A stretch of DNA of 64,000 nt from positions 817,469 through 881,468 of the forward strand of contig JAHJQF010000001.1 in the NCBI GenBank assembly GCA_018819405.1. Direction: 5' to 3'. Origin of the DNA: Patescibacteria group bacterium (lineage in GTDB: Bacteria > Patescibacteriota > Patescibacteriia > UBA1558 > GWA2-36-10). Positions 15,087 through 57,037 of this stretch are shown one piece after another. The notes below the pieces were generated by a model that saw nothing but the letters and a program-made list of their open reading frames with translations, did not search any database and had not been told where the DNA came from. The position numbers and the translations under genes are program-made. How positions within the stretch are numbered: the first letter of the stretch is position 1; every line of letters starts with the position of its first letter.

Positions 15087-15094
15087 TATAAAAA

Positions 15095-17361: not shown

Positions 17362-17362
17362 A

Positions 17363-18709: not shown

Positions 18710-18826
18710 TTTTATTTTTATTTACTCTCCTACTAAAAAGATTCGTCTAATTTCTAATATTAGATATTTCTTTACCAGCTTTGCGGCGGTGTTTTTTCTT
18801 GGCTAATTTCTTTTTCTTATTCACTT

Positions 18827-18855
18827 TGTTAGACCTGTTAAAAATTAATTAAAAG
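18827..18855 (-). promoter_or_regulatory. Copy of the conserved upstream motif (TTAATTAATTTTTAACAGGTCTAACAAA-GTG), degenerate
   Basis: On the minus strand it reads ttaattaatttttaacaggtctaacaaa directly 5' of a GTG-initiated 25-codon basic ORF. Confidence 0.4.
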
Positions 18856-18940
18856 GCGTTAAAAAATAGACTTCTAAGTAGCCCCTCTAAGGTTTATAGT
18901 ATTATTATACCACAAATTACTATCATAAACCAAAAAATTA

Positions 18941-19114
18941 TTTATCAGTTATCTTATTTAAAATATAAACAAAAATTAATCCATAAAAATAATATTCTAA
19001 ACTTATAAAACGATTTACCATACCAGTATTAAAAACTTCCATGAATAAAAGAATTATCCATGTAAAAAATGCTATCTGAAAAAAATCATTTAAAATAAGA
19101 TGTAAAGTTTTCAT
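18941..19114 (-). CDS. Small hydrophobic ORF (57 aa), hypothetical
   Basis: ATG directly preceded by ttaatttttaacgggtctaatggg (conserved motif). Encodes MKTLHLILNDFFQIAFFTWIILLFMEVF... Below the ORF-track cutoff. Confidence 0.3.
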
Positions 19115-19146
19115 CCCATTAGACCCGTTAAAAATTAATTAAATAA
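19115..19146 (-). promoter_or_regulatory. Copy of the conserved upstream motif (TTAATTAATTTTTAACGGGTCTAATGGG-ATG)
   Basis: The plus strand reads cccattagacccgttaaaaattaattaaataa. Confidence 0.5.
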
Positions 19147-19186
19147 GTATTTTTATATTTTAATTTATTTCTAAATTCAACAGAAA

Positions 19187-19702
19187 TTATCTTTTAAGTA
19201 TTATTTGCCAATTGTTTATTAGACTTACTACCGAAGTATCTGATATATTAGGTAAAGATAAAATAATCTCCAGTTGATTATTTTTTGTCAGAGCATCAGC
19301 TAGGGCAAAAGTCAAAGAAAAATTATTGTTGGCTATATTTTTCCATTGCCAAGATCCGTCTTTTTGGCGTAGACCAATATTTATTTCTGTCGCTTCATCA
19401 AAATAAAAACTACCCTCTATAGTCATCATATCAAAATCAACTGGTGTATAAATTTTCATATAAATTGGTTCGCCTAGGATATCAAAAGTTTGACCTTCCA
19501 AACGATCAAAAACTGGAGTCAATCTAGATTCCGGATACCAGCCTCTTATATCACGGCTAAGAGATTGCGAAAAATCCAAATGATATTTCAAATCACGCTT
19601 TGTATAAATCCCTTTATTCAATATAAACAAAAGTAAAAGAAGGGAAAAAATCAGCCAAATATAACGAAAAACCTTAACTATTGAATTTTTATCTAAAGTC
19701 AT
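19187..19702 (-). CDS. Hypothetical membrane-anchored protein (171 aa)
   Basis: N-terminal TM helix, AT-rich native ORF. Confidence 0.4.
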   Translation of the reverse strand: MTLDKNSIVKVFRYIWLIFSLLLLLFILNKGIYTKRDLKYHLDFSQSLSRDIRGWYPESRLTPVFDRLEGQTFDILGEPIYMKIYTPVDFDMMTIEGSFYFDEATEINIGLRQKDGSWQWKNIANNNFSLTFALADALTKNNQLEIILSLPNISDTSVVSLINNWQIILKR

Positions 19703-19766
19703 ATATATATATTTTAGCAGAAACTTTACTATTTACCAAAGTATTTGCTAAAATAAAGTCAAGATT

Positions 19767-21869
19767 ATGCTTAGTTTCAGTAGAATACAAAATATTTTTT
19801 CTCAACTTTTATTGGCTCTTGTTATATTGGGCAACGTTTTTTTATTCCACAATACTAAAATAGGCCTTATTTTTGGTCTATTTTATCTATGGCTAAACAG
19901 TAAAAAGATAGCCGATATGTATGCCTCCAATATCCACCAAGGCCTAAAAAATGTGATGGGGCTTTTGACTATCTTAGCTTATATATCACTTGTATACACC
20001 ATGGCCTACCACTTGTGGCAAATAAACATTTATATCTGGCTATTTGTCTTCTTATCTATACCACTAGCTGTTGAGATACTTTCTTACTACCAAAATAGCC
20101 GACACTATTTTTTGACCAATACTAATTTTGGTTTTCTCAAAATCAGTCATATCAGAAAAACTATTTTACCTTTAGCTGTAATTGTTTTGGATATAATACT
20201 TGTTTCAGCTCTATTTAAAAAAGCCAGTCTGGGCATTATACGATCCCCTTGGGAGCTAGTTGGATTTAGATTTTGGTTGGTGTTTGCCCTTTCAAACTTC
20301 AGTTTGGCCGCCAGTATTATTGACCAAAAATCTTATAAAAATATAATACTTATTTGTTGGCATTTTTTCCTTATTTCTAGTATTGGAATTATTTTATATC
20401 CCCTAGGCTATGGCTATGACTCTTTTATACATCTAGCTGTTTTAGAAAATATCAACCAGACAGGCACTATAGAACCACGTCTTTTTCTTTATATTGGACA
20501 ATATGCTTTGACATTTTTCCTTAGCAATATATTGCAAATATCTATTGCTACTGCCAACAAACTGTTGATGCCGGCTCTATTTAGTATTTTTTGGCCAACC
20601 AGTCTATATTATGGTTTACGATACGGATTTAACTGGTCATACAAAGCTAGCTACCTAGCAGTTTTATGGAGTCTATTTATTGGCTTCAACTTTGCTATCA
20701 TGACCACTCCCCAATCTTTGACTTTTTTACTGCTGGCTATTTTTGTTTTCATACTGCCGGAAATAAACAAAAAGACTATTAGTCTCTATTTTACCCTGTT
20801 ATTAAGTCTCATGGCTCTTACTATCCACCCCTTAGTGGGTATACCAATGCTTTTCTTTACGACTATTTTAGCTATCTGGAAATTAAAAAAACACAAAAAA
20901 ACAAACCTTATATTAAAAGTCATTGCCTACGGATCATCAATTATGATATTGCCAGTTTTGTTTGCAATATATCAAAAAATAAATCAATTTAGCTGGCAGG
21001 AAATAATAAAGATAAACTGGTGGCCAATCATAAATCTACCTCGTATTTTTTGGTTTAAAAGCTATAGCTTTCCCCTTGATATGATCCACAATATTGGAGC
21101 CAACCAGTTTTGGATATACTCTCTGATAGTATTATTGGGCGTTTATGCCATATTCAGAGAAAACAAATATATTTTTTTCAAAAGACTCCTGATATTTTCC
21201 GGTCTTATATTGGCTAATTATCTACTAGCTTCCATATTTTTGTCTTTTAATCTACAAATTAGCTATCAAAAACATGACTACATCAACAGAATAGTATTTA
21301 TGCTGGCTATTATGCTTTTACCTATATTTCTAACTGCTGTTTATTTTTGGTGGAGTTCTGTTTTGAAGAAAAACAAACTAAGCCAAAAAACTTTTATTGC
21401 TGTCTTAACTACTATGGTGATATCTGTCAGCACTTATTTTAGTTATCCTGTATATGACCAACATGCCAACAGCAAAAGTTTTAATATCACTTCTACTGAC
21501 CTAAAAACTGTCCAGGCTATAGAAAATGATGCTCAAGGTCAAAACTATATAGTACTAGCCAATCAAATGTTAGGAGCAGCGGCTATATACCAATATGGTT
21601 TCCGAAATTACTATAATGAAAATTTTTATTATTCTATGCCGCTTGGTTCAGATAATATTTACCAAAATTTTCTCAATATGATAGAAAATGAGGCTAGCGT
21701 AGAAGAAGTGGTTATGGCGATGGATAAAGCCGGTGTGGATAAAGTTTATTTTGTAGTCAACAACTATTGGCACAGCGCCAAACAAGCCATTAAGCAGGCC
21801 GAAGAGACTGCTGACAAGAAATTATCTATAGATAATGGAATAAATACTGTGTTTATCTATAATCGCTAA
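19767..21869 (+). CDS. Large polytopic membrane protein (700 aa), possible GT-C-type glycosyltransferase
   Basis: About 14 predicted TM helices over ~550 aa plus a soluble C-terminal domain. Confidence 0.35.
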   Translation: MLSFSRIQNIFSQLLLALVILGNVFLFHNTKIGLIFGLFYLWLNSKKIADMYASNIHQGLKNVMGLLTILAYISLVYTMAYHLWQINIYIWLFVFLSIPLAVEILSYYQNSRHYFLTNTNFGFLKISHIRKTILPLAVIVLDIILVSALFKKASLGIIRSPWELVGFRFWLVFALSNFSLAASIIDQKSYKNIILICWHFFLISSIGIILYPLGYGYDSFIHLAVLENINQTGTIEPRLFLYIGQYALTFFLSNILQISIATANKLLMPALFSIFWPTSLYYGLRYGFNWSYKASYLAVLWSLFIGFNFAIMTTPQSLTFLLLAIFVFILPEINKKTISLYFTLLLSLMALTIHPLVGIPMLFFTTILAIWKLKKHKKTNLILKVIAYGSSIMILPVLFAIYQKINQFSWQEIIKINWWPIINLPRIFWFKSYSFPLDMIHNIGANQFWIYSLIVLLGVYAIFRENKYIFFKRLLIFSGLILANYLLASIFLSFNLQISYQKHDYINRIVFMLAIMLLPIFLTAVYFWWSSVLKKNKLSQKTFIAVLTTMVISVSTYFSYPVYDQHANSKSFNITSTDLKTVQAIENDAQGQNYIVLANQMLGAAAIYQYGFRNYYNENFYYSMPLGSDNIYQNFLNMIENEASVEEVVMAMDKAGVDKVYFVVNNYWHSAKQAIKQAEETADKKLSIDNGINTVFIYNR

Positions 21870-21938
21870 AAAATATAGAAAACAAAAAAAGACTGTCCCA
21901 CTATGGGAAGCCTTTTTTTGTTTTAAGCTTTAGATGCT

Positions 21939-22220
21939 TTAAAGTACAGCGTCTTTACAAGCCTTAGCTACACGGAATTTTACTACAGTTTTAGCTGGGA
22001 TTCTGATAGTTTCGCCAGTAGCCGGATTGCGGCCGTCACGGGCAGCACGGTGTTTTTTTACTAGTTTACCCAAACCTGGGACAGTAAATTCACCACTTGT
22101 TTTGACCTCTTTGTAGGCTAACTCTCCTAATGTATCCATTAAACTGGTTACATCTTTTTTGCTTAGTCCAGTCTTTTCTGACAAGACATTAAACAATTGT
22201 GACTTGGTTAATTTTGCCAT
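21939..22220 (-). CDS. hup: DNA-binding protein HU
   Basis: 93 aa: MAKLTKSQLFNVLSEKTGLSKKDV...GRNPATGETIRIPAKTVVKFRVAK, the canonical HU/IHF fold signature. Confidence 0.9.
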   Translation of the reverse strand: MAKLTKSQLFNVLSEKTGLSKKDVTSLMDTLGELAYKEVKTSGEFTVPGLGKLVKKHRAARDGRNPATGETIRIPAKTVVKFRVAKACKDAVL

Positions 22221-22447
22221 AAGCGTAATATTAACTTATTAATTATTATTTTTCATCAATAAATATAGCACATTTAAAAAAGTTTGTGAATATTTGTCAA
22301 TAAAAATGGGGGAAAACTTATACACAGTTACAAAAATTTGTCAAATTACTGGGTTTTTTGCTTTTTATTTTTATTTCAAAGAAAGGCCCCGGAGTCAAAA
22401 AGACTACGGGGCCATCACCATCATCAATAACAGAGAGAAGTGCCAAT

Positions 22448-22615
22448 TCAGATCAGGTTGGCAATGTTGTAGCTGCACTTGCGTCTGTGCTGACCATCTG
22501 TGCATTTGCACTCCTGGCAGATGTCTCGTCTCGTATCTGCTGCCTGACGCTCCTCCTGAGTAACAGTAGTGTCCTCACGCTTGTCGCTCATATTGTACCT
22601 TCTTTCGTTGGACAT
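22448..22615 (-). CDS. GC-rich cassette B, gene 3: 55-aa Cys-containing mini-protein
   Basis: RBS ggaggtaggctg then ATG. MSNERRYNMSDKREDTTVTQEERQAADTRRDICQECKCTDGQHRRKCSYNIANLI, followed by hairpin ggccccg...cggggcc. Confidence 0.45.
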   Translation of the reverse strand: MSNERRYNMSDKREDTTVTQEERQAADTRRDICQECKCTDGQHRRKCSYNIANLI

Positions 22616-22626
22616 CAGCCTACCTC

Positions 22627-22830
22627 CTAAATATTTGCCGCATCCACAGATACCGCAGCGATTTTTGCTGCTTCCAGCTCCTCTTGTCTGAGTTTTTTGA
22701 GCCTCTCCAGGCAAGAAATTGGCGTGCAAAATTCCTGCCCGCAAAAATTACAACGCCATTTCCCTTTTGGCAGATTTCGATTGCCTTGGCAATCGTCCCC
22801 AGCTTCTGCTTCCTTGGACAAATCAGTCAT
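22627..22830 (-). CDS. GC-rich cassette B, gene 2: 67-aa Cys-rich mini-protein (zinc-ribbon-like)
   Basis: MTDLSKEAEAGDDCQGNRNLPKGKWRCNFCGQEFCTPISCLERL... The AAGGAGG directly abuts the ATG (suboptimal spacing), so the start is uncertain. Confidence 0.4.
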   Translation of the reverse strand: MTDLSKEAEAGDDCQGNRNLPKGKWRCNFCGQEFCTPISCLERLKKLRQEELEAAKIAAVSVDAANI

Positions 22831-22850
22831 CCTCCTTGATTGTTCTCCGA

Positions 22851-22931
22851 CTAACAGCCGAAGGTAGTGGGAAAGTAGCTGTCAAACAGCTCGTCGTCGC
22901 TGGCGTCATAGCCGAAAAAATTGTTGCTCAT
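22851..22931 (-). CDS. GC-rich cassette B, gene 1: 26-aa peptide MSNNFFGYDASDDELFDSYFPTTFGC
   Basis: RBS gaggag 8 nt before the ATG. First of three tandem small ORFs. Confidence 0.3.
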   Translation of the reverse strand: MSNNFFGYDASDDELFDSYFPTTFGC

Positions 22932-23217
22932 TGTCAGAACTCCTCTGTTTGATGGTTAGTGACTTGTGGTGGAATGTACACTTCTAAAACACCAAAAAAG
23001 CCGCCTTATTGGCGACCTGCATTTTTTGATGTTTAGAAGTTAAATAATTACTACTAGCAAAAAAGCAATCGCCTAAGGCGTCAACAAAATAATGCTAATA
23101 ATGATAATCAAACTTCTAAACATATATTTATATAAATAATAATATCACCACTAAAAAAGACTGTCAATATTTAGATGCGGCTGGTTTTCCTTTGGAAAAC
23201 CAGCCGCCAAAGCACTG

Positions 23218-23448
23218 CTAACCGCGCCAAAATCCCAGGGCAGGAGTATTGAGAATATTCTCGTTGGAAACCCCCAACACTGGATCTCCAGACTCAACAT
23301 CTAAGCTGGCCTGGCACTCGTGTTCTGCACAAGCATCAATAATGCTCCACCCTTTCTGGTAGCGAACCGTTGCCGGACGACTGACGCCCGATTGATCACA
23401 GATTGTACAGACTCCCTCTCCTGACCTAAGAGCCAGCCTCTTAGCCAT
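23218..23448 (-). CDS. GC-rich cassette C: 76-aa CxxC...CxxHxC mini-protein
   Basis: RBS cacggaggtgttgac then ATG. MAKRLALRSGEGVCTICDQ...DACAEHECQ, followed by hairpin gcggctggtttt...aaaaccagccgc. Confidence 0.45.
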   Translation of the reverse strand: MAKRLALRSGEGVCTICDQSGVSRPATVRYQKGWSIIDACAEHECQASLDVESGDPVLGVSNENILNTPALGFWRG

Positions 23449-23544
23449 GTCAACACCTCCGTGATTGTAATGATAGAGCTCATCTTGGAGCTCCCCCAGT
23501 TTTATCAGAGATTTCCTCCTATCCTAGTTTAGTAGTCAATAGTA

Positions 23545-23733
23545 TCAAAACCCATCCCCCTTTATCTGCCCGTTAGGCAAACTGGAATTGGAGACAATTT
23601 CCTGAGCAACTGTCGGCGCCTCTTTATCCGTATTTTCCAGATACAGACACTGATCATAGCGGCCACGCAGACAGTTTCGACAATAGCAGATTTCCATAAA
23701 TCCGCCGCTGGGATGTGGGATTTTCTGACGCAT
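23545..23733 (-). CDS. GC-rich cassette D: 62-aa Cys-containing mini-protein
   Basis: RBS aaaggagggtggtc then ATG. MRQKIPHPSGGFMEICYCRNCLRGRYDQCLY... A TTGACA lies upstream on the minus strand (-35 candidate). Confidence 0.45.
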   Translation of the reverse strand: MRQKIPHPSGGFMEICYCRNCLRGRYDQCLYLENTDKEAPTVAQEIVSNSSLPNGQIKGDGF

Positions 23734-23982
23734 GACCACCCTCCTTTGTGCACTAAGTGCGGTTGAATGCTTATGTCAATGAACTCTATCAAAAAAGGCC
23801 GCTGTTAGGCGACCTTTATTTTGTATAATTTATAAATTTTGAAATATATGATTACACAAAACTAGGTCGTCTGAGCGTCCAAAATAAATGAAATGCGAAT
23901 ATAGGTGTGATTTAGTTTTGTGAAATTTATTATCATATTGAATTTAGCTTATCATAGCTTAAAATATCTTGTCAAATGTTTT

Positions 23983-24996
23983 TTAATTTTTAACATCAAA
24001 ATCCAAGAAAAAACCATAATGAGCTCTTTTTCTAAATTGAGGGCTCCTCAAATTCAACTTTTCTATAATACCTTTAGGGGACAAATCATAACCTTCTATT
24101 TCTATGGACTTGCCGTCAACTAAAGCTGTGGCCATGACTGGTTGTGGGTGTCCGATGGCATAAGCTAATTTTACCAAGACCTCTTTGGCATTATATTTTT
24201 TGAGATACTCTACTGCCAAATAACGAGCCATATAAGCGGCGGATCTATCTACTTTGGTGGAATCTTTACCTGAAAAACAACCTCCACCAACTGGGATTTG
24301 AGGGCCATAGTTGTCAGCGGTTATTTTCCTACCGGTCAAGCCAGTATCAGCTTCAAAACCTCCTTGGACAAAAGGGCCAGCCGGATTGATAAATATATTT
24401 TTGTATTCTGGGATTATAGGTTTTACTACTTCTTCTTCTATTAATTGTTTTAGTTTTTCAAAATCAACATCAGCCTTGTGTTGAGTGGAAACTACTACTG
24501 TATCCACTACTTGATTGTCATTTAAAGTGACCTGAGCTTTAGCATCAGGCATAAGATATTGAGATAATTCTGTTTTAGCTTCATTGCGAATTTCTTCTAG
24601 TTTTCTGACTAGTTTTGTGGCTAAAACATGTTCTATAGGCAACATTTCAGGAGTTTCACTGGTAGCATAGCCGACCATAATACCCTGATCACCTGCTCCA
24701 CCGGTATCAACACCACGAGCAATATCTGGACTTTGTTTTACTATATTTACCAATATCTCTAATTCTTCTTTATAACCTATATCTTTATATACATCTCTGG
24801 CAATTTGAGCGGCATCAAATTTGGCAGTTGTAGTCACTTCTCCCATTATGACTAATTTTCCATGACCACCTAAAGCCTCCACTGCTACCCGACTAGTAGG
24901 ATCTTGACGCAAACATTCATCTAAAATAGCGTCCGATATTTGATCACATACTTTATCAGGATGTCCATAAGTAATTTGTTCTGCAGTTTTCAACAT
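23983..24996 (-). CDS. metK: S-adenosylmethionine synthetase (short form)
   Basis: 337 aa with GHPDKVCDQISDAILD, GGGCFSGKD and GDQGIMVGYA motifs. Confidence 0.9.
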   Translation of the reverse strand: MLKTAEQITYGHPDKVCDQISDAILDECLRQDPTSRVAVEALGGHGKLVIMGEVTTTAKFDAAQIARDVYKDIGYKEELEILVNIVKQSPDIARGVDTGGAGDQGIMVGYATSETPEMLPIEHVLATKLVRKLEEIRNEAKTELSQYLMPDAKAQVTLNDNQVVDTVVVSTQHKADVDFEKLKQLIEEEVVKPIIPEYKNIFINPAGPFVQGGFEADTGLTGRKITADNYGPQIPVGGGCFSGKDSTKVDRSAAYMARYLAVEYLKKYNAKEVLVKLAYAIGHPQPVMATALVDGKSIEIEGYDLSPKGIIEKLNLRSPQFRKRAHYGFFLDFDVKN

Positions 24997-25020: not shown

Positions 25021-25155
25021 AAAAAACTCTCTTTTTATTATAGAGAGTAGATTCGTCATCTTTCCCTCCAAATAGGGTTGGACTTAGCACCTTTCTAAAA
25101 GTAGGTTGCTGACGGATCATAGAGCCAAATCTCTCCCCGTTCTCTTGATAATTTA
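25021..25155 (-). promoter_or_regulatory. SAM-I (S-box) riboswitch with intrinsic terminator, in the metK leader
   Basis: The minus strand reads TTATCAAGAG..GGGAGAGA..GGCTCTATGA..GTCAGCAACC..AAGGTGCTAAGTCC..GGAGGGAAAG, then hairpin actctct-ataataaaa-agagagt plus TTTTT. This matches the S-box consensus blocks. Confidence 0.7.
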
Positions 25156-26540: not shown

Positions 26541-26728
26541 AATTAAATTATAACATATTTTACAGATAAATATAATAAATATTGACTAAAGGTGGTTTTT
26601 AGGTTACATTATTTAAATAATCTCGGCCCTTTTCATTTGCAACATAGAAAGGAGGTTTTGACAGTTCAAGGATGAACGCTAGCTCTTGAAGCTAGCACAA
26701 AACAAACCCTAGGAACAGGAGTTCCAAA

Positions 26729-27067
26729 ATGCAAGCAAGTGCTGCTATTTTCAATCAGCTCCTCGACACGCTGGGAGTGCCGAGCCGACAGAGGCCGCTC
26801 AACAATGAGCAGGCCGAAAGACTCGGTATGCAACTGGTCCACGTCTGGCAAAAAAACAGCAAACTGCTGGCAGCTGCCCATCGCAACTTGCCAGCAAGTC
26901 GCCACGAAGCTGGGCGCTTGGCTCGGATGAATGGTGACCATTGTCACCATTTGGCAACAGCCATGGTCGCCAAGATGGACCAGATCGCTCCCGACAACGA
27001 TCCGATACTCTCCTCAGTCGTGAGGTCTCTCAACGAATCACTTGCTCACAATCAGGCCTCGGCCTGA
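26729..27067 (+). CDS. GC-rich cassette E: hypothetical 112-aa helical protein
   Basis: RBS aggag 7 nt before the ATG. An upstream leader holds a 5-codon mini-ORF (ATGAACGCTAGCTCTTGA) embedded in the hairpin gctagct-cttga-agctagc. Confidence 0.5.
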   Translation: MQASAAIFNQLLDTLGVPSRQRPLNNEQAERLGMQLVHVWQKNSKLLAAAHRNLPASRHEAGRLARMNGDHCHHLATAMVAKMDQIAPDNDPILSSVVRSLNESLAHNQASA

Positions 27068-27085
27068 TTCTCGCCAACTCCTTTC

Positions 27086-27128
27086 GACCCCGTCGCGCAA
27101 ACTTGTACGACGGGGTCTTCTTTTTTTA
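27086..27128 (+). terminator. Rho-independent terminator of cassette E
   Basis: gaccccgtcgcgcaaacttgtacgacggggtc followed by ttcttttttt. Confidence 0.7.
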
Positions 27129-27134
27129 TACCCG

Positions 27135-28289
27135 TCAATATTTATTGCGACGACGACGGCCGGCTGACAAAGCAAATCTATGGGCTTCTTCCCTTACTTT
27201 AAGTAAGGTATTTTTTATATTTTCAGTCATCTCTTTAAATTCTTTTTTAGTTCCTTTTGGATACACCAATTTATCACCAGAAAATTTGGAAATACCAACA
27301 ATAGGAATATTTATATTTTGAGCCTTAAAAACTTTATCAACATAATCTATTTGCGGACGACCGCCATCAATCATCATTAGGTCAGGCCGAGTCCACTCCT
27401 TATGAGTAAGTCTTCTTAGCAAGGCCTCTTCCAAAGAACGCAAATCATCATTAGCCGGAGAATTTTTTATTTTAAAAAGCCTATATTGATTTTTGTCAGC
27501 CACCCCGGCAGAAAATACTACCATAGAGGCATAAGTTTCTTTGCCCGAAAAATGAGAAATATCATAACCCTCTATTCTATTGATGCCACCCAGCACAGAA
27601 TCTTCATTGGTCAAAAGCGACACATCCTGCAAATGCCTTAAGCTGTTTGCCTGCTCCGGATTTTCTTTGGCCAGCTTAGCCATCAACCTTGTCTTTTGAC
27701 CGGACAAAAGCAAAATAATATTATTTATATTTTTTTGATAATCTTTTTTGCTAATTTTCCCTACACATACTCCTGGACACAAGCCAATCTGGTGATCAAA
27801 ACATGGCCTAGTCTGATCAGGACGGCATTTACTGTAAGGAAAAATACGCCTGATAATCTTCAGAGCATTATTGAGTAATGCCGCGGCCTGGTATGGCCCA
27901 AAAACTCTGACACTGCCTTGGGGAAACTTTTTTAAATCCCGACCACGGATAAGTATAGGATGTGGATAATCAGTCTTGGCTATTACCAGATACAAAAACG
28001 ACTTATCGTCACGCTGAATGACATTGTACTTTGGCCAATATTTTTTTATATCATTAGCCTCCAAAACAACTGAATCCAAAATACTGTCAGTTTTTTGATA
28101 TTCTATATCACTAGCCAGATTTACCATCTCGGCAATTCTATTTTCTATATCTTTTCTAAAATACTGTGCCACTCTTTTTTTCAAAGATGCAGCTCGACCG
28201 ACATAAAGAATGTGACCCTTATCATCAAGCCAATGGTAAACTCCGGGACTATCAGGAAATTTTTTAATTTTTTCTTTTAACTTTATCAT
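27135..28289 (-). CDS. uvrC: Excinuclease ABC subunit C, short form lacking the C-terminal HhH domain
   Basis: 384 aa. N-terminal GIY-YIG (GVYHWLDDKGHILYVGRAASLKKRVAQY), Cys cluster CFDHQIGLCPGVC, and C-terminal RNase-H-like block (DISHFSGKETYASMVVF). Confidence 0.85.
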   Translation of the reverse strand: MIKLKEKIKKFPDSPGVYHWLDDKGHILYVGRAASLKKRVAQYFRKDIENRIAEMVNLASDIEYQKTDSILDSVVLEANDIKKYWPKYNVIQRDDKSFLYLVIAKTDYPHPILIRGRDLKKFPQGSVRVFGPYQAAALLNNALKIIRRIFPYSKCRPDQTRPCFDHQIGLCPGVCVGKISKKDYQKNINNIILLLSGQKTRLMAKLAKENPEQANSLRHLQDVSLLTNEDSVLGGINRIEGYDISHFSGKETYASMVVFSAGVADKNQYRLFKIKNSPANDDLRSLEEALLRRLTHKEWTRPDLMMIDGGRPQIDYVDKVFKAQNINIPIVGISKFSGDKLVYPKGTKKEFKEMTENIKNTLLKVREEAHRFALSAGRRRRNKY

Positions 28290-32635: not shown

Positions 32636-32743
32636 AAATTTATATAAATAGCACAAAGGCCCCAAGTTTTTTTGGGGTGAGTATATATAATAATACAAGA
32701 CACAAAAATATGCAAAATATAAATAATTAGTTTCCCAATGCTA

Positions 32744-32772
32744 TTGACAAAAAACTAAATATATGTTAATAT
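32744..32772 (+). promoter_or_regulatory. Consensus sigma70 promoter (TTGACA-17-TAATAT) driving the ncRNA candidate
   Basis: ttgacaaaaaactaaatatatgttaatat. Confidence 0.6.
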
Positions 32773-32778
32773 AGCAAG

Positions 32779-33030
32779 GTTCAACTAATAATAACTTTTC
32801 TTTCAATTCGCAGGAGAAAAATTTAGGTGATAGATTGCCGCGCGGCTCTCGCTAGCGCTGTCCAATTCTTAAGTGCTCAAACACTGCGGGATTGTTGACA
32901 CCTCGCGCAGCAAATCAGGTCACCTGGGATAGCTATTTGAACTAGCACATCGCCTGTTCAAGTCCCCGCTCCTGCTTGGAGCCCGATACTACACAATGGA
33001 ACAAAACGTGTGGGTCGGGCTCTTTTTTTT
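32779..33030 (+). ncRNA. Unclassified GC-rich structured small RNA candidate (~250 nt), stand-alone between uvrB and rlmN
   Basis: Promoter upstream, then a GC-rich noncoding stretch with multiple palindromes (cgctagcg, agtgctcaaacact, ccgcgcgg...cgcgcag). Ends in a strong terminator gagcccga...tcgggctc plus T8. No ORF with an RBS. Confidence 0.5.
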
Positions 33031-33060
33031 GTCAAAAGAAAAACCCTTTTTGTGTTGGAA

Positions 33061-34053
33061 TTATTTTTTATCAGTAGCCAGCTGTCCACAAGCTGCCTCT
33101 ATATCTCTACCAAAACTATAACGCTGAGTAACTGATATTCCTTCTCTTTCCAAAAGATGACGAAATTTTTGTATGTCTTTGACGTCACTGGCTTTGAAGA
33201 CATCTGTCGGATTATAAGAAATAAGATTGACCATATACAAAGGTTTTTTCATTAACCGAGCCAATTCTTCAGCATGTTTTGGCTGATCATTTACTCCTTT
33301 GATCATCAAATATTCAAACATAACCCGACGACCGGTTTTGGCAATATATTCGTCAACCTCTTTTAGTAGTTTAGTAATATTAAAACCACGATTTATAGGC
33401 ATGAGTTCACTTCTCAATTTGTCATTTGGTGCATGAAGCGACACTGCCAAATTGACTTGAAAATTTTCACTAGCTAATTTTTTGATACCATGAATTACAC
33501 CACTGGTAGAAATAGAAATGCGTCTGGCTCCAATGTGCAAATCTTCATTAAGATACTTGATAGCCTTGATCACATTTTCATAATTTAAAAATGGCTCCCC
33601 CATCCCCATAAATACCACATTGGAAACACGATCATTACTTTTGGCCAAATATCTGCTAAAAAATAAAACCTGCTCTATGATTTCATTATAATCAAGATTT
33701 CTTTTTAAACCCATTTTACCGGTAGCACAAAAAGTACAGCCCAAAGGACAGCCAACTTGAGTAGACACACAGACTGTAAAGCGCCCGTCTTTGTGCCCCA
33801 AAAGTACAGTCTCTATTTTCAAACCATCAGACAAAGTAATCAAAGCTTTGGTAGATTGAGTGTTTTTGGAAGCAAAAATTTGCCCATCAATTTCTAAAGG
33901 ACAAACTTCATTTAATTTTTCCTTCAAATCCTTGGGTATATTACTAGCCTCAGACCAATTGGTGACCATTTTCTCAAAAATAGCCTCTTTGGCCTGTTTT
34001 ACCCTATATTTAGGCTGTTCTGCCAAGACTTCATATAAATTTTCTAAATTCAT
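33061..34053 (-). CDS. rlmN: 23S rRNA (adenine2503-C2)-methyltransferase, radical SAM
   Basis: 330 aa with the CPLGCTFCATG radical-SAM Cys motif and the MGMGEP block. Confidence 0.85.
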   Translation of the reverse strand: MNLENLYEVLAEQPKYRVKQAKEAIFEKMVTNWSEASNIPKDLKEKLNEVCPLEIDGQIFASKNTQSTKALITLSDGLKIETVLLGHKDGRFTVCVSTQVGCPLGCTFCATGKMGLKRNLDYNEIIEQVLFFSRYLAKSNDRVSNVVFMGMGEPFLNYENVIKAIKYLNEDLHIGARRISISTSGVIHGIKKLASENFQVNLAVSLHAPNDKLRSELMPINRGFNITKLLKEVDEYIAKTGRRVMFEYLMIKGVNDQPKHAEELARLMKKPLYMVNLISYNPTDVFKASDVKDIQKFRHLLEREGISVTQRYSFGRDIEAACGQLATDKK

Positions 34054-34132: not shown

Positions 34133-35860
34133 CTAAGCTCTCTTTCTTTTAAAAATAAATCCAGCAACCACCAACAAAATAATTACTATTCCCCAAATCA
34201 TATTTTTATTATTACTTGAAGAATTATCTTCCAAAAAAATACTATCAGTATTTTGATTATCTATTGGCGTATTATCTACAAGCTGCTCTGGCTCAGTAAT
34301 GCTTTTTATGTTTTCATCTTTATCAAACTCCACATAAGTATCTGGCTGACCGTCACCTGTAGTATCATGAGCCTCGGTCATAAGATACAAATCATCATCA
34401 AATCTAAGCCAAGTATCATCCTGACTATTACTGTCGCTATCGTAGACTGCCAAAAGCAATTTATCACCATTATAATACAATTTACTACCGTCCTCTTCTT
34501 CCAATCTATCATAATTTATATTGGAGCTGGCAAAGACAATTGTCTGTTCCGGATTTTCTTCAGTCTGAGCCAAAGCACTATTTAGAAAATGCCAAGAAGT
34601 ATCTTTGTCCTTTTGCCAATTAGCTTTTTGCTCATTACACTGACTTTCCAAAATATCTTTTATTCTGGTCTTTTCTTTGGCTTCCCAACCAGTTGCTTCG
34701 GCTTGCAATCTAGCTATTTCTTTTTCATTGGCCAAAAGCTCTGCCCGACGGGCGGCATTTTCCCGATAACTATCAGCGATAGCCTCGGTCAAAAACTGAT
34801 TGGTAATACGCTGGTCACGCAAAATATCAAATTCCTCCTGACTAATATCAGCTGATGGCAAAATTGCATTGCGAGAATCAGTGGCTATTTGTTTTACTAC
34901 TGACGTAGGATCACCTATGCTCTCTAGAGCTTCTAAGGCGGCATTGACTCCTATAGAAGCTACTTTACCTTTGGCATCACTAGTGTCTATTGCTAGTTTG
35001 GAATTAGCCGGAACACTGGCTTGAAATACCTTTAATGCCGCTCCAATTCTTTCAATCTGTTCAGTACCAGACAATACCTTACTATATGACTGACCAGTGC
35101 CAATGCCAGACTTGATTGTAGTATAAGTAATATAAGCCAAACGGGTAGTGGCTTTTATCAAATTGTTTCTCATATTTTGCACCAAAGCCATTTTATATTC
35201 CCGCAAAGCTAGGCGCATCTCCCTATCAATTTCCATATCTCTTTCAAGCTCAGCATTTCTAGCCATCAATTCAATTATTTTTTCATAAGTAGCTGTGTGT
35301 TGTTGCACTTCCCAGCTTCTGACACCTGGCTCTAGACGATAATCAAAATCAGAATACTTTTTCCAATCAGTATCAAATTGTCCTTCTATCAGATTGCAAT
35401 CACTATCAAATGGACCGTCTGGGACAAAACCAGCTGTATCAGCATCTGGGGGTTCTTTGGAATCATTTTCTTCTGGTTTTACACATTTGTCTCCTTGTTT
35501 GATATAAGGATCTTCACAGTAATTACACTGTTTATTTTTGTAAATACCGCCAGCTAGCTCACAATTGTCGGCAAAAGTATCAAGTAGACCCTGTGCCCAT
35601 TTGTCGTATTCATCTTGGACATAGCTATTGGCTGCTGACTTATCCAAGCCAATATTGTCACAATATTCATTGTGAAAAGCACACTTACAATACTGAAAAT
35701 TCATCACCACCCCGCAAAAATCATCTTTGATATCTGGTTTTTGAAATTTTTCTATTTTTCCTTTGCTGCAGCCGGAAAAAACAAAAAGGGCCAAAAATAA
35801 GGTGCCCATTAAAACAAAAGATTTGTTATTTTTCATATATTTAAAGCAATTGTTAGCCAA
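34133..35860 (-). CDS. Hypothetical lipoprotein / coiled-coil surface protein with C-terminal TM anchor
   Basis: 575 aa. Signal peptide with a lipobox-like FSGC, Cys-rich N-domain, long coiled coil, Asp-rich C-terminal region and a terminal hydrophobic helix. Confidence 0.4.
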   Translation of the reverse strand: MANNCFKYMKNNKSFVLMGTLFLALFVFSGCSKGKIEKFQKPDIKDDFCGVVMNFQYCKCAFHNEYCDNIGLDKSAANSYVQDEYDKWAQGLLDTFADNCELAGGIYKNKQCNYCEDPYIKQGDKCVKPEENDSKEPPDADTAGFVPDGPFDSDCNLIEGQFDTDWKKYSDFDYRLEPGVRSWEVQQHTATYEKIIELMARNAELERDMEIDREMRLALREYKMALVQNMRNNLIKATTRLAYITYTTIKSGIGTGQSYSKVLSGTEQIERIGAALKVFQASVPANSKLAIDTSDAKGKVASIGVNAALEALESIGDPTSVVKQIATDSRNAILPSADISQEEFDILRDQRITNQFLTEAIADSYRENAARRAELLANEKEIARLQAEATGWEAKEKTRIKDILESQCNEQKANWQKDKDTSWHFLNSALAQTEENPEQTIVFASSNINYDRLEEEDGSKLYYNGDKLLLAVYDSDSNSQDDTWLRFDDDLYLMTEAHDTTGDGQPDTYVEFDKDENIKSITEPEQLVDNTPIDNQNTDSIFLEDNSSSNNKNMIWGIVIILLVVAGFIFKRKRA

Positions 35861-36014
35861 ATATATCTAAATTATAACCTGCTATATAAAATATTGTCAA
35901 AAATCTCATATATTGACAAAAAATCTAAAAAATTATACTATATATTGTTTTCCAAGCGCAAGAAAGCTATATGCTAACTTGCTAAATTGTTCACACAAGC
36001 CTGGAGGAAAGTAC

Positions 36015-36470
36015 ATGGAACGGAAATACCTGACTTTTGAAATGTCCGGACAGATCATTGCACTATGGGTTCTGCAAATTAAAGAAATCTCTGATATGCA
36101 AAATATTCATCTGGTACCCAACGCTGGCGACGGTCTGCTGGGCGTGTTCGCATTGCGAGGTCGCAACATACCGGTCTTTGAATTCCGCACTGGCGAGCCG
36201 CGAATCAGCGAATGCATCATCGTCATCAAAGTGGATGCACCCAATCTGCATAGTTTCGCGCTGATCGTGGATAGACCCGAAGAGGTCTTGAGTATTCCGG
36301 ATGATTTGCCTCGCTCGCCGATCGAAGAAAAAACTCTGCGTCAAGCAGTGACGCCGGCTTGTCAAGGTATCAAATACCAGGTCTCCCACGATGACCGCCA
36401 ATTCTGGCTGATGGATCCTGAGAACATCCTGAGCAAAGAGCAGTTGGCCAGAGCCGCCTCACTGCTCTAG
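36015..36470 (+). CDS. GC-rich cassette F, gene 1: CheW-like domain protein (151 aa)
   Basis: TTGACA-17-TACTAT promoter, RBS ctggaggaaagtac then ATG. Core LTFEMSGQIIALWVLQIKEISDMQNIHLVPNAGDGLLGVFALRGRNIPVFEFR matches the CheW fold (hhxFxhxxxxYxhxhxxVxEIxxxxxIxxVPxxPxxhxGhhNLRGxxhPVhDLR). Confidence 0.65.
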   Translation: MERKYLTFEMSGQIIALWVLQIKEISDMQNIHLVPNAGDGLLGVFALRGRNIPVFEFRTGEPRISECIIVIKVDAPNLHSFALIVDRPEEVLSIPDDLPRSPIEEKTLRQAVTPACQGIKYQVSHDDRQFWLMDPENILSKEQLARAASLL

Positions 36471-36521
36471 AGCCTTAGCCATTACAACAGGCCAAAAAAG
36501 GTCTAAAACAAGGAGTCTGCC

Positions 36522-36830
36522 ATGATTCACTTTGAGCTGCACCTGCTGGCGTCCAGTCTCGGCCATTTCAAATCAGAAATACAGTTCAAAATAACCGACG
36601 TCGCCGAAAAACTGGAACTTCGCGAGGCTACTCTGGAGATCATCGAGGTCAAGTGCCTAATCAATTTGAACAACGCCTCGGCCTACCCTCACGATTGGGG
36701 GCGCCTGATCATTCAATGTGATGATAGCCACATGATCCAGGAAATCATAAAGGCACTGCAGGAGTCTGACTTCGGTATGATGATCAGCACCACAACCGAT
36801 GTTTTTGTCCCATCCCGACCCACGACATGA
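36522..36830 (+). CDS. GC-rich cassette F, gene 2: hypothetical 102-aa protein (possible ACT/ferredoxin-like fold)
   Basis: RBS acaaggagtctgcc then ATG, co-oriented 50 nt after the CheW-like gene, followed by terminator gccggggtccca-catatg-ggactccggc plus T6. Confidence 0.5.
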   Translation: MIHFELHLLASSLGHFKSEIQFKITDVAEKLELREATLEIIEVKCLINLNNASAYPHDWGRLIIQCDDSHMIQEIIKALQESDFGMMISTTTDVFVPSRPTT

Positions 36831-36896
36831 TGGACTCCTATCCGTTCGTCGATGAACACATCTAGAACCTCGACTGATGGAGTTCATACCTAGACA

Positions 36897-36935
36897 GCCG
36901 GGGTCCCACATATGGGACTCCGGCCTACTTTTTTA
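36897..36935 (+). terminator. Rho-independent terminator of cassette F
   Basis: gccggggtcccacatatgggactccggcctactttttt. Confidence 0.65.
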
Positions 36936-36952
36936 TATAAACACAATAAACA

Positions 36953-36981
36953 TTGACATTTGCAGCCTTTTTGTTTATAAT
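36953..36981 (+). promoter_or_regulatory. Consensus sigma70 promoter (TTGACA-17-TATAAT) for the tRNA-Thr/rpmG island
   Basis: ttgacatttgcagcctttttgtttataat, about 22 nt before the tRNA 5' end. Confidence 0.65.
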
Positions 36982-37003
36982 TTACCCCGTATTTAAAAAA
37001 TCC

Positions 37004-37079
37004 GCCGGGATAGCTCAGTTGGTAGAGCAACGGTTTTGTAAACCGTGGGTCGGGGGTTCAAATCCTCTTCCCGGCTCCA
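37004..37079 (+). tRNA. tRNA-Thr (anticodon TGT)
   Basis: gccgggatagctcagttggtagagcaacggttttgtaaaccgtgggtcgggggttcaaatcctcttcccggctcca. Cloverleaf with acceptor gccggga/tcccggc, anticodon loop tttgtaa and encoded CCA. Confidence 0.85.
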
Positions 37080-37181: not shown

Positions 37182-37337
37182 ATGTCACAAGATAATCTAG
37201 CCAAACTGGAATGCACTGATTGCAAAACTATCAATTATCACAGTCATCGTAACAAAAAAACAGTCAAAGAAAGACTGGAAATGAAAAAGTATTGCAAAAA
37301 GTGCAAGAAACATACTATGCACAAAGAGACTAAATAA
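37182..37337 (+). CDS. rpmG: 50S ribosomal protein L33 (zinc-ribbon type)
   Basis: 51 aa: [51 protein letters not shown], the CxxC...CxxC L33 pattern. Below the ORF-track length cutoff. Confidence 0.7.
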
Positions 37338-37350
37338 TTTGGTCTTTTGA

Positions 37351-37473
37351 GGGGGAGTAGTATAGTGGTAGTCCACCCAGCCGCTCGCGAGCAGCTGGGA
37401 CAGGGGTCTCCACCCAGCCCTTCGCGAAGGGCTGGGTCCACCACAGCCACCATTGTTGGCTGGGTCCAAAACC
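37351..37473 (+). pseudogene. 5' portion of a split tRNA-like gene (acceptor + D-arm + CCA-type anticodon-stem region) interrupted by three GC-rich hairpin elements
   Basis: gggggagtagtatagtggtag, then hairpins tccacccagccgctcgcgagcagctggg, acccagcccttcgcgaagggctgggtcc and accacagccaccattgttggctgggtcc between ggtctcc and aaaacc. No T-arm. Its acceptor is complementary to the 3' piece at 37933-37939. Confidence 0.45.
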
Positions 37474-37515
37474 TAAAAAAGCATAATTAAAACAAGAAAA
37501 GCGATTATTTATTAT

Positions 37516-37752
37516 GTGTATATTTTAAAATTAAATAGCGGCAGATTTTATATAGGTTATACGAAAAATATAAAAAGAAGATTATCTGAACACAAAAGAA
37601 AAAAATCTTACATAACTGGCCGAGAAAAATGTTTTGAATTAATCTACTTTGAAGCTTATAATGAGATATACCCAGCTCAAGAAAGAGAGAAAAAACTCAA
37701 ACAATACGGATCAGCTTATCATGGATTATTAAAAAGGTTAAAAATTCGCTAA
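37516..37752 (+). CDS. GIY-YIG nuclease-family small protein (78 aa), second copy in the window
   Basis: MYILKLNSGRFYIGYTKNIKRRLSEHK...E..K. Sits between the two halves of the split tRNA-like gene. Confidence 0.7.
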   Translation: MYILKLNSGRFYIGYTKNIKRRLSEHKRKKSYITGREKCFELIYFEAYNEIYPAQEREKKLKQYGSAYHGLLKRLKIR

Positions 37753-37760
37753 CAGTTGGA

Positions 37761-37836
37761 GGGGGTGTAGTGTCAATGGCTAGCACGTCGGTCTCCAAAA
37801 CCGTAAGTCTGGGTTCGAATCCTAGCACCCCTGCCA
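37761..37836 (+). tRNA. tRNA-Trp (anticodon CCA), intact
   Basis: gggggtgtagtgtcaatggctagcacgtcggtctccaaaaccgtaagtctgggttcgaatcctagcacccctgcca. U8 and T-loop ttcgaat are present, with a G-U closing pair in the acceptor. Confidence 0.85.
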
Positions 37837-37866
37837 TTTGTTAGTGAATTTTTTAATTAAAAATTT

Positions 37867-37943
37867 CTGGTCTCCACCCAGCCGCTCGCGAGAGGCTGGG
37901 TCCAAAACCTCTAGCGTGGGTTCGATTCCTACCTCCCCTGCCA
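37867..37943 (+). pseudogene. 3' portion of the split tRNA-like gene (anticodon-loop region with one inserted hairpin, T-arm, acceptor 3' strand, CCA)
   Basis: ctggtctcc[acccagccgctcgcgagaggctgggtcc]aaaacctctagcgtgggttcgattcctacctcccctgcca. Removing the bracketed 28 nt gives ggtctccaaaacc, identical to the tRNA-Trp anticodon loop. Confidence 0.45.
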
Positions 37944-38022
37944 GCTTAAGATCATCTTTTGAGATGGTTTTTTTGTTTGCAAAAGAAAAGGAGACTCACG
38001 AATTTTGAATTCATAAATCTCC

Positions 38023-38718: not shown

Positions 38719-38910
38719 CTAGTGATAGATCCCCGCATGGACACCAGCGATACCGAGGAGGACCCCCATGATCACGTAAGTGACCTTGTAGAGCGGCTGA
38801 TGCCACTCCGGATGCTCGTCCCAGTTGATCTGGACGATCTTCCTGTCGATGATGTTGGTGACCAAAGGGCAGATCAACAACGCGAGAATGAACTGCAACA
38901 TACCAGACAT
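38719..38910 (-). CDS. GC-rich cassette G: 63-aa two-helix membrane peptide
   Basis: Minus-strand promoter TTGACA-17-TATATT. RBS caaggaaggatgcc then ATG. MSGMLQFILALLICPLVTNII...GVLLGIAGVHAGIYH. Terminator ccgtc...gacgg plus T7. Confidence 0.45.
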   Translation of the reverse strand: MSGMLQFILALLICPLVTNIIDRKIVQINWDEHPEWHQPLYKVTYVIMGVLLGIAGVHAGIYH

Positions 38911-39067: not shown

Positions 39068-39745
39068 ATGAACAAAAATATCATCATTGTGGTATTAGCT
39101 GTAATCTCAGCTGCTCTGGCTGTATATGTTGGATTTATCAGTTCACAAAATAAAGGTATTGGTTTGGAAAATGCTAGTACCAGAACTGGCAAACTAGTCA
39201 ACGAGATTTTACTACAACCGGGCATTAGCGCCGAAATCGGCCAAGCTGTGGAAGAAAACGGGATGTATAAAATACCAATCTCTCTGCCAGATGGCACTAA
39301 CATAAATACTTATCTGACCAGAGATGGTAAGCTATTTTTCCCAGAAGCCATAGATGTTGATGAGCTGACTGAAAAATTAGCTCAGGAAAACTCAGGAACT
39401 AATAACCAAAACAACATGGAACTAAAAACAGAAATTTTAAACGAGGGTAGCGGTGATCAACTAGTCGCCCCCGGTGACAATATCACTGTGGATTATACCG
39501 GCACTTTAGAAGATGGCACACAGTTTGATTCTAGTGTTGGCAAAGATCCATTTACCTTTACTATTGGCGAGGGTCAAGTTATCCAAGGTTGGGATCAAGG
39601 CTTGATTGGTATGAAAGTTGGCGAAGAAAGAAAGCTCACTATCCCCTCTGATCTAGCGTACGGTTCATACGGTAGCGGTTCGATACCACCTAATGCAACT
39701 TTGATCTTTACTGTCAAACTTATTTCTATAAATTCAGGCAACTAA
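39068..39745 (+). CDS. FKBP-type peptidyl-prolyl cis-trans isomerase, membrane-anchored/secreted
   Basis: 225 aa with an N-terminal TM/signal and the C-terminal FKBP domain DYTGTLEDGTQFDSS...GEGQVIQGWDQGLIGMKVGE...IPPNATLIFTVKLI. Confidence 0.85.
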   Translation: MNKNIIIVVLAVISAALAVYVGFISSQNKGIGLENASTRTGKLVNEILLQPGISAEIGQAVEENGMYKIPISLPDGTNINTYLTRDGKLFFPEAIDVDELTEKLAQENSGTNNQNNMELKTEILNEGSGDQLVAPGDNITVDYTGTLEDGTQFDSSVGKDPFTFTIGEGQVIQGWDQGLIGMKVGEERKLTIPSDLAYGSYGSGSIPPNATLIFTVKLISINSGN

Positions 39746-54652: not shown

Positions 54653-55138
54653 TTACCTCAAAACCTTGATTGTCTGGCTGTTGTAAGTTTCGCAAGCTCC
54701 CACATGCAGAGCACCATTAGCATCCTTCATAAGATAATACCCCGTATTGGTAGTAGCCGCACTACTTGATTTTGGATCATAAGGTATGGCTGGCAAATAT
54801 CCAGCGGTCACCAAAGGATCTAACCAAATTAGCCCATTGGTAGTGGTAGCTGAAGCAGAACAATCATAGCCTGTATCAGTACCTGCATAATTAGCAACCA
54901 TACATGGAGTTGGCCCATCAATACAAGTAGCTGAACTGGTAGGATTTGTACCATTGTTATCAGCAACATAAGTATTCCAGGCATCGGCAATAGCTGTGAC
55001 ATCAGCCCAACGCTGAGCATTGTAAGCTTCACCAATTCTCTTGGCAGGATTTAAAGCTACAAAGGTAGCGGCCGCTAGTAGAGCAATAATGGCTACTACG
55101 ATGATGAGCTCTACCAGAGTAAAACCTTTTTGTCTCAT
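54653..55138 (-). CDS. Type IV pilin (prepilin-type N-terminal methylation/cleavage domain)
   Basis: MRQKGFTLVELIIVVAIIALLAA (class III signal G-F-T-L-V-E) followed by a Thr/Ser-rich globular domain. Confidence 0.85.
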   Translation of the reverse strand: MRQKGFTLVELIIVVAIIALLAAATFVALNPAKRIGEAYNAQRWADVTAIADAWNTYVADNNGTNPTSSATCIDGPTPCMVANYAGTDTGYDCSASATTTNGLIWLDPLVTAGYLPAIPYDPKSSSAATTNTGYYLMKDANGALHVGACETYNSQTIKVLR

Positions 55139-57020: not shown

Positions 57021-57037
57021 ATTAAAAATTTATTTTA

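Follow-up and report, generated by a model that had tools for sequence, protein, structure and literature searches.

The DNA considered here is a stretch of 64,000 nucleotides (the window) from a Patescibacteria group bacterium (GenBank assembly GCA_018819405.1, contig JAHJQF010000001.1, positions 817,469 to 881,468 of the 1.035-Mb contig). We focus on a small GC-rich unit of two open reading frames (ORFs), ORF A and ORF B, annotated at NCBI as 'chemotaxis protein CheW' and 'hypothetical protein KKH39_04400', respectively. The unit sits in a slot delimited by rlmN on the left and a tRNA-Thr gene on the right, where the following features are found:

33061-34053: rlmN, left landmark of the slot
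35913-35941, plus strand: promoter-like site TTGACA-17-TACTAT, matching the consensus at 10 of 12 positions in a scan (good, not perfect)
35948-36014, plus strand: 5' untranslated region (UTR), its transcription start being inferred
36015-36470, plus strand: ORF A, CheW-like, single domain, 151 amino acids (aa), NCBI MBU1203251.1
36471-36521, plus strand: spacer of 51 nt between ORF A and ORF B, holding the Shine-Dalgarno (SD) sequence AAGGAG of ORF B and no terminator
36522-36830, plus strand: ORF B, family unassigned, 102 aa, NCBI MBU1203252.1 (KKH39_04400)
36800-36865, plus strand: frameshift site and conserved C-terminal tail of ORF B, with a T5 run at 36800-36804
36897-36934, plus strand: intrinsic terminator GCCGGGGTCCCACATATGGGACTCCGGC followed by a T run, with a 12-bp hairpin at 36897-36924
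37004-37079, plus strand: tRNA-Thr(UGU), right landmark of the slot (ARAGORN, Rfam), identical in the contigs L001 and L006 discussed below

ORF A matches the Pfam CheW profile (PF01584) over positions 1-137 of 138, with E=2.4e-15 and 56.8 bits against a cut-off of 23.5, which bears out the CheW/PilI-type domain read from it in a preliminary description of this DNA. Its score for the NCBIfam equivalog of enteric CheW (NF007903) is 17.7 bits, far below the cut-off of 260. In an alignment of 23 CheW sequences, ORF A retains 14 of the 16 invariant or near-invariant residues, and the two exceptions are conservative (D to E, and G to A). When ORF A is aligned with 21 single-domain CheWs, the residues F8, I25, R48, V54 and D86 do not vary, and L6, E24, P35, G43, V44, L47, P53, I68, V85 and V91 are near-invariant positions kept in ORF A. 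The retained core, that of the two-barrel fold, includes a Glu/Arg pair, which we take to correspond to E. coli E38/R62, and the LRG..PV motif (GV..LRG...PV..(D/E).R, VD). The closest solved structure is the CheW-like 2qdl_A. In comparison with its orthologue on contig L001, ORF A shows proportions of nonsynonymous and synonymous differences (pN and pS) of 0.31 and 0.79, and a nonsynonymous divergence (dN) of 0.41, synonymous sites being saturated in every gene compared between the window and L001 (pS 0.68-0.79). Since pS is saturated, pN stands at 0.31 and both orthologues are open, the protein is clearly under constraint, and it is intact, with the CheW core preserved, in three lineages. Thus, as judged from its sequence, ORF A is a real and intact but very divergent CheW-type adaptor.

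With the ordinary CheW proteins (PF01584; E. coli CheW, PDB 2qdl), ORF A shares the single domain of about 150 aa, the full profile match, the Glu/Arg pair and the G-V-x-x-L-R-G-x-x-x-P-V motif; like them, it has MCP (methyl-accepting chemotaxis protein) and CheA partners encoded in its genome. However, it is at most about 30-44% identical to them, lacks an N-terminal extension, has a shortened loop after the FEFR strand, and is encoded apart from the che genes, in a GC-rich unit. Its C-terminal half is distinctive (..LRQ.V.P.C..IK.Q.S.D..Q.WLMDPE..).

The partners in question lie just outside the window. Pfam scans of the 46 window ORFs that were retained as probable genes, all with 120 aa or more (the native set, which also served for the composition values given below), and of the reading frame of ORF A, returned no MCPsignal, Hpt/HATPase_c or Response_reg match, in agreement with the earlier statement that no MCP, CheA or CheY occurs in the window. 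What the window does hold is part of a type IV pilus operon, the genes of which begin 18.2 kb downstream of the ORF A unit, the distance of about 18 kb given previously being thus accurate. When a 1026-aa protein of this cluster (window 59200-62280) was used as a look-up, it led to contig L009 (Logan, run SRR6514730), whose positions 8281-19938 correspond to window 64000-52343. Because this overlap is 100.000% identical over 11,658 bp, the other 8.3 kb of L009 lies past the 3' end of the window. The genes concerned are:

54653-63989, minus strand: in-window part of the type IV pilus operon, with N_methyl pilins, PilM and the start of PilC (Pfam)
L009: MCP, 382 aa (MCPsignal, 44.8 bits)
L009: native CheW, 138 aa (CheW, 54.8 bits)
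L009: CheA, 516 aa (Hpt, 39.0 bits; HATPase_c, 67.7 bits; P5/CheW, 30.7 bits)
L009: CheY-like receiver, 157 aa (Response_reg, 88.6 bits)
L009: PilB, 561 aa (T2SSE, MshEN)
L009: PilC, 405 aa (T2SSF)

In this string, the genes for MCP, CheW, CheA and CheY are followed on the same strand by pilB, pilC and pilin-like genes, with overlaps or gaps of no more than 44 nt. This stretch (L009 2339-8906) corresponds to extrapolated window positions 63375-69942 on the minus strand, with pilB, cheY-like, cheA, cheW and mcp at 64637-69942. The che genes alone occupy about 66.4-69.9 kb, which puts them roughly 30-33 kb away from ORF A. These che-pil genes are natively composed, with a GC content at third codon positions (GC3) of 0.27-0.34, and no cheR or cheB was found within 2.3 kb upstream of the che module. 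ORF A itself lies outside the cluster, which extends over about 54.6-69.9 kb on the opposite strand. A complete MCP-CheW-CheA-CheY set therefore heads the pilus operon, which gives substance to the link with a Chp/Pil-type circuit suggested in the preliminary description. That text had also allowed for ORF A being an orphan or, should a che operon turn up elsewhere, a plain duplicate. Neither holds: since the same chromosome encodes the complete set, ORF A is not an orphan, and since a pairwise comparison with the native CheW gives no more than 19% identity over 53 aa (E=5e-4), it is not a plain duplicate. Nor would a CheW be as unusual in this kind of genome as had been supposed, since chemotaxis genes have already been reported in Peribacteria (PMC4736985), which belong to the candidate phyla radiation (CPR), even though they are absent in other CPR genomes (PMC7143001). 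In the literature, we found no paper specifically linking Patescibacteria with CheW or CheA. Thus, what was already known is the NCBI annotation of ORF A as CheW and the presence of CPR chemotaxis genes in Peribacteria; what is new, modestly, is a three-member divergent CheW clade of related Patescibacteria, with a lineage-specific partner, a modular variable slot and a che-headed pilus operon.

The ORF A unit is equipped with its own transcription signals, as had been noticed earlier. The promoter-like site sits within an extended motif, ATATTGACAAAA (35910-35921), of a type that occurs in 10 copies in the window against 1.7 expected, five of them preceding GC-rich units, and the promoter region aligns with that of the CheW unit of L001. 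From promoter to ATG, the two are 69% identical (L001 9953-10060), versus 58% in the coding region. The UTR carries a conserved hairpin (GCAAG..AGC..GCU..CUUGC), and its 5' UUUUCC stretch could pair with the SD sequence GGAGGA (36003-36008), placed 7 nt 5' of the ORF A ATG; RNA folding predicts a structure of -17.2 kcal/mol (z = -2.0) with the SD paired. Downstream, the terminator is homologous to three hairpins of L001 and to one of contig L008, 3 of 13 pairs showing double-sided changes that keep the pairing, and is missing from the empty site of L006. A terminator scan found no plus-strand terminator between ORF A and ORF B; since the sole one is that at 36897-36924, the simplest reading is that both genes form one transcription unit, and the co-transcription proposed in the preliminary description is likely.

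ORF B is a more elusive protein. None of Pfam, NCBIfam, PADLOC and PHROGs assigns it to a family, a weak Pfam RRF match having been rejected (17 bits against a cut-off of 29.7). Its sole homologue is encoded at L001 8829-9176 (P0153, 115 aa), with 34% identity over 89 aa and E=5e-16; P0153, which matches the L001 copy exactly, was also the only addition from a search with the ORF B alignment. Around its SD and start, ORF B shows about 70-85% identity with L001 8802-8852. Structure prediction, to which the preliminary description had pointed for this partner, did not establish its fold: AlphaFold gives alpha/beta elements, but with a low predicted local distance difference test (pLDDT) score of 54 from the single sequence and 47 from a two-sequence alignment, and Foldseek against the PDB returns generic ferredoxin-like matches only, none of them significant (best E=0.075). 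A kinship with a 146-aa GC-rich ORF of L006 was also considered and found unsupported (BLASTP nil, hhalign probability 2%).

The 3' end of ORF B is disrupted in this genome. Its conserved tail, CPIPTHDMMDSYPFVDEHI, with the pattern ..IP.H.MMD..P.VDE.., is readable solely in the -1 frame, and in tblastn residues 99-115 of the L001 homologue match 36812-36862 in this other frame with 59% identity. The same T5 run is found in the Logan assembly L010, reached by an exact look-up of the 185-aa TTG-start call of ORF A and 100% identical over 6,558 bp, although it perhaps derives from the same reads and is not fully independent. On this sequence, ORF B may either have lost its tail recently or depend on ribosomal slippage.

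Relatives of ORF A are few. A phmmer search against 1.84 billion representative proteins gave 877 matches at E<=1e-3, of which, besides ORF A itself, only one lies under 1e-30 (P0003, 52% identity); the others are ordinary or triple-CheW proteins at about 30% identity, reaching up to 44% over partial lengths. Exact-sequence look-ups of the 151-aa ORF A and of ORF B found nothing, and word-index homology searches with both gave back themselves only. A contig scan with the ORF A alignment returned only ordinary CheWs, 27-35% identical (from a Proteobacteria metagenome-assembled genome, Treponemataceae and Sebaldella), and plasmids yielded likewise ordinary CheWs only, with about 28% identity. 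Viral contigs were scanned with four queries (the alignments of both ORFs, the junction of terminator and promoter, and the hairpin from L001) and phage records by tblastn, all with negative results. PADLOC had no match for ORF A, ORF B or the proteins of the L001 island, and in PHROGs only phrog_18840 (CheW-like, function unassigned) matches ORF A, weakly (E=8e-7).

P0003 is encoded on the ENA contig L001, in which the order rlmN, island, tRNA-Thr, L33, tRNA-Trp, FKBP, 345-aa gene and M23 peptidase is syntenic with the window. The flanking proteins of both are 72-96% identical, the CheWs 50%, and the ORF B proteins 30-34%. The L001 island comprises 2.4 kb of 46-61% GC in three tandem units, each with a ATATTGACAAAA-type promoter and a GGCCGGGG..CCCCGG hairpin terminator, and a 76-nt terminator/promoter junction is repeated within it at 87% identity:

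L001 unit 1: ORF B homologue and 188-aa ORF
L001 unit 2: CheW alone
L001 unit 3: 103-aa ORF

Thus, the ORF A and ORF B families co-occur in the islands of the window and L001, where they are arranged differently. A third member of the CheW family (P0044, 149 aa, 31% identity) is found on the short Logan contig L008; it is AT-rich (GC3 0.25), has the homologous hairpin downstream, and adjoins an FKBP gene 68% identical to window 39068-39745. The L006 slot, on the other hand, is empty, with about 215 bp from rlmN to tRNA-Thr and no hairpin. No integrase domain was detected in the Pfam-scanned ORFs of the window or the L001 island, and a repeat search found no tRNA-derived direct repeat at the left border of the slot. 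The hairpin junctions, viewed by eye, behave as terminators with T runs, and no attC-type site was recognised among them. Because positional orthologues exist in two related genomes, one of them AT-rich, the ORF A unit is not a recent private acquisition; it has long resided in a slot that varies within this lineage, but it is dispensable. The horizontal acquisition proposed earlier is therefore sustained as to the foreign-like composition of the unit, but not as to a recent or private event.

A fixed site holding differing small units in related genomes recalls both the 'minimal mobile elements' of Neisseria, which are variable slots swapped by homologous recombination between conserved flanking genes, and integron cassette arrays. 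In L001, the units are in tandem, with the repeated junction between them. Contrary to integron cassettes, the units of this slot have their own promoters.

Other features of these islands are worth recording. The window slot also encodes, at 34133-35860 on the minus strand, a 575-aa protein of native composition that is absent from L001 and L006; it begins like a lipoprotein, has many Cys residues close to the N-terminus and a transmembrane segment at the C-terminus, and belongs to no Pfam family. On L001, a repeated element of about 110 nt (9199-9301 and 10685-10806) precedes the 188-aa and 103-aa ORFs; in it, a conserved mini-ORF of 7 codons, MRWKFR(E/Q)P*, has an SD of its own and precedes a hairpin of 10 perfect base pairs, GAATCTCGGT-AGCC-ACCGAGATTC. 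The element looks like a leader-peptide regulatory device. The public calls at L001 8822-9232 (plus strand) and 9225-9986 (minus strand) are in frames supported by neither homology nor GC3, the better-fitting ORFs being the ORF B homologue at 8829-9176 and the 188-aa ORF at 9315-9881 (GC3 0.81). Wrong calls of this kind may be systematic in GC-rich islands, and relatives would then go unseen in protein databases.

The interpretation that we favour, with moderate confidence and partly by analogy, is that ORF A is an accessory CheW which joins or modulates the pilus-linked chemosensory array. Under this proposal, the complete MCP-CheW-CheA-CheY pathway strung together with pilB, pilC and the pilin genes would have in ORF A a second CheW-type coupling protein. 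This protein would take a place in the receptor/CheA array controlling the pili, or compete for one there, and would thereby alter the coupling or output of that array, with ORF B as its putative partner or modulator. Physical contact of ORF A with the MCP or CheA of this genome is inferred, and so is what ORF B does. An accessory adaptor is the best supported reading because, to our knowledge, CheW domains have an established role in chemosensory receptor/kinase arrays only, a pilus-wired pathway is present, and the canonical core is kept; in addition, the sole homologue of ORF B lies in the same island as the CheW of L001, the ORF A family is constrained and maintained in relatives, and neither defence nor phage families offer a rival assignment.

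Known systems offer two partial precedents. The Pil-Chp pilus chemosensory system of Pseudomonas aeruginosa has two CheW proteins, PilI and ChpC, both encoded inside the pil-chp cluster. The likeness would be one of adaptor number, a pilus pathway with more than one CheW adaptor, one of which is here in the operon and ORF A extra; contrary to PilI and ChpC, however, ORF A lies 30 kb off the cluster, differs in composition and is variable among relatives. FrzB of Myxococcus xanthus, a divergent CheW, shapes the organisation of the array but does not bind CheA; it lacks the strands contacting the CheA P5 domain. By analogy, a divergent extra CheW such as ORF A might modulate array architecture instead of duplicating the main adaptor, even though, unlike FrzB, it retains the P5-contact region LRGRNIPVFEFR.

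Several observations weigh against an accessory adaptor. The unit lies 30 kb away from the che genes and outside their transcription unit, ORF A resembles the native CheW as little as described above, and it has no detectable similarity to the P5 domain of the native CheA. The tip of the native MCP has diverged from the usual consensus, and so its fit to the more canonical, foreign-looking ORF A is not obvious. The dN of ORF A (0.41, against 0.10-0.19 in neighbour genes) means that it evolves 2-4 times faster than they do, and its family counts three known members among the 1.84 billion representatives. To this must be added the empty slot of L006 and the frameshifted ORF B of this genome. Were an extra CheW nevertheless to tune the pilus pathway, it would give a handle on how episymbionts regulate host seeking, type IV pili being central to host attachment and DNA uptake in CPR/Patescibacteria.

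Some of these same observations would suit a different reading, rather unlikely in our view, in which the unit is cargo of the variable slot with a job unrelated to the array of its own cell, and the CheW fold is reused together with ORF B, for instance in conflict or interference with the chemoreceptor arrays of a host bacterium. The slot content varies from nothing in L006 to three tandem units in L001 and the 575-aa gene plus one unit in the window; the composition is foreign-like (GC3 z of about 10-12) and common to other small units of the window; and ORF A evolves fast, weakly matches the phage-borne CheW-like PHROG mentioned above, and has its nearer counterparts among the CheWs of other phyla, at 30-44% identity over partial lengths, compared with 19% for the native CheW. 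Against cargo of this kind stand the lack of PADLOC matches and the lack of relatives in the viral contigs and phage records. In the unit, moreover, we noticed neither a signal peptide nor any gene associated with secretion. Finally, we know of no CheW protein working outside an array, and this genome has an obvious cognate pathway.

We consider it improbable that the unit is a decaying remnant, that is, an old and no longer useful acquisition on its way to being lost. The frameshift of ORF B in two assemblies, the presence of two genes in the window unit against four in the L001 array, the raised dN of ORF A, and the fact that L006 either lost or never had the island would all fit such a remnant. 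Against decay speaks ORF A itself, intact and with its CheW core kept in three lineages despite saturated synonymous sites, as well as the conservation of promoter, UTR, SD and terminator; the shifted tail of ORF B, for its part, is still open and 59% identical, which implies that the lesion is recent or bypassed.

The composition of the unit invites a broader view, in which the CheW unit would be one among many. GC content reaches 48.2% in 36001-37000 versus 36.8% for the whole window, and GC3 is 0.572 in ORF A (z=9.9) and 0.631 in ORF B (z=12.0), versus 0.303 +/- 0.027 in the native ORFs (n=46), in accordance with the GC-rich, foreign-looking cassette of the preliminary description. Adenine-specific mutagenesis, of the kind known from diversity-generating retroelements (DGR-like), was rejected as a cause of this GC-richness because third positions are poor in T as well as in A, a pattern shared with the genes of GC-rich genomes. 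Four further GC-rich units of the window are built alike, with a GC-rich body between a ATATTGAC(A/T)AAA promoter and a hairpin terminator:

12510-12960: ORF 12599-12877, 92 aa, GC3 0.71
26579-27160: ORF 26729-27067, 112 aa, GC3 0.61
32741-33030: no ORF above about 23 aa; 72% conserved in L001
38560-39003, minus strand: ORF 38719-38910, 63-aa membrane-like protein, GC3 0.81

The small ORFs of the three coding units have no Pfam family, and the product of 38719-38910 has a positional orthologue in L001, 34% identical and likewise GC3-rich. The unit at 32741-33030 may be a small RNA, and Rfam recognised no known RNA in 32700-33100, 37300-38000 or 21900-24000. The GC-rich units of the window share the promoter motif but no terminators or other homologous borders, and an all-against-all comparison of their products revealed no families besides orthologous pairs. 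L006 has GC3-rich small ORFs of its own (4062-4385, 107 aa, GC3 0.84; and 9121-9561 on the minus strand, 146 aa, GC3 0.70), with no detectable similarity to the window units.

At least four GC3-rich mini-units lie in the window, and L001 and L006 have more of them. The two genes studied here might be part of a wider class, scattered through these AT-rich genomes, of small and rapidly evolving genes with high GC3, each with its own consensus promoter and terminator; within it, the CheW unit would modulate pilus chemosensing as an exchangeable element, or act as a decoy for host arrays. We regard this proposal as doubtful. Since positional orthologues keep a high GC3 despite saturated synonymous sites between the genomes, the units would either be replaced time and again from an unsampled GC-rich pool, by recombination at conserved flanks or at promoter/terminator junctions and plausibly through pilus-dependent DNA uptake, or be subject to a GC-biased process specific to the locus. 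The puzzle that remains is the persistence of GC3-richness in the ORF A unit and the other mini-genes, which may reflect partial amelioration from a very GC-rich donor, repeated replacement of the units from an unsampled pool, or a locus-specific bias.

The last reading, in which a CheW acquired recently would stand alone in a genome that encodes neither CheA nor MCP, would fit the 64-kb window devoid of che genes other than ORF A, the GC-rich composition and the restriction of close homologues in large protein collections to two related CPR sequences, but it has become very improbable given the complete MCP-CheW-CheA-CheY set 0.4-6 kb past the window end on the same chromosome and the orthologous units of related genomes, one of them AT-rich. 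A CheW without any pathway would have been the greater surprise, which is not the case here.

The window contains other features besides the CheW unit. Positions 22300-23750 have 47-53% GC and no long ORFs, with several short Cys-rich ORFs (64-76 aa) on the minus strand, one strong promoter-like site on that strand (23167-23139, 11 of 12 positions) and no Rfam match. Downstream of the slot, a tRNA-Trp gene of the L001 type is split, with its first 22 nt at 37351-37372 and its last 43 nt at 37901-37943. The approximately 530 nt in between comprise three GC-rich hairpins ending in GGCTGGGTCCA, a 78-aa GIY-YIG ORF (37516-37752) and a complete second tRNA-Trp(CCA) at 37761-37836, which is 78% identical. 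From this arrangement, it looks as if a GIY-YIG element disrupted the tRNA-Trp gene and brought a replacement with it; Rfam found no group I intron in the region. At 16030-18709, on the minus strand, a 443-aa OLD-family nuclease-like protein (AAA_21/AAA_15 ATPase plus OLD TOPRIM) adjoins a 448-aa DUF6938 protein, and both genes may form a two-gene defence pair. Apart from tRNAs, the Rfam scans gave a single hit overall, a SAM-I riboswitch at 25053-25154 on the minus strand (RF00162, 66.7 bits), which lies directly upstream of the SAM synthetase gene (23983-24996).

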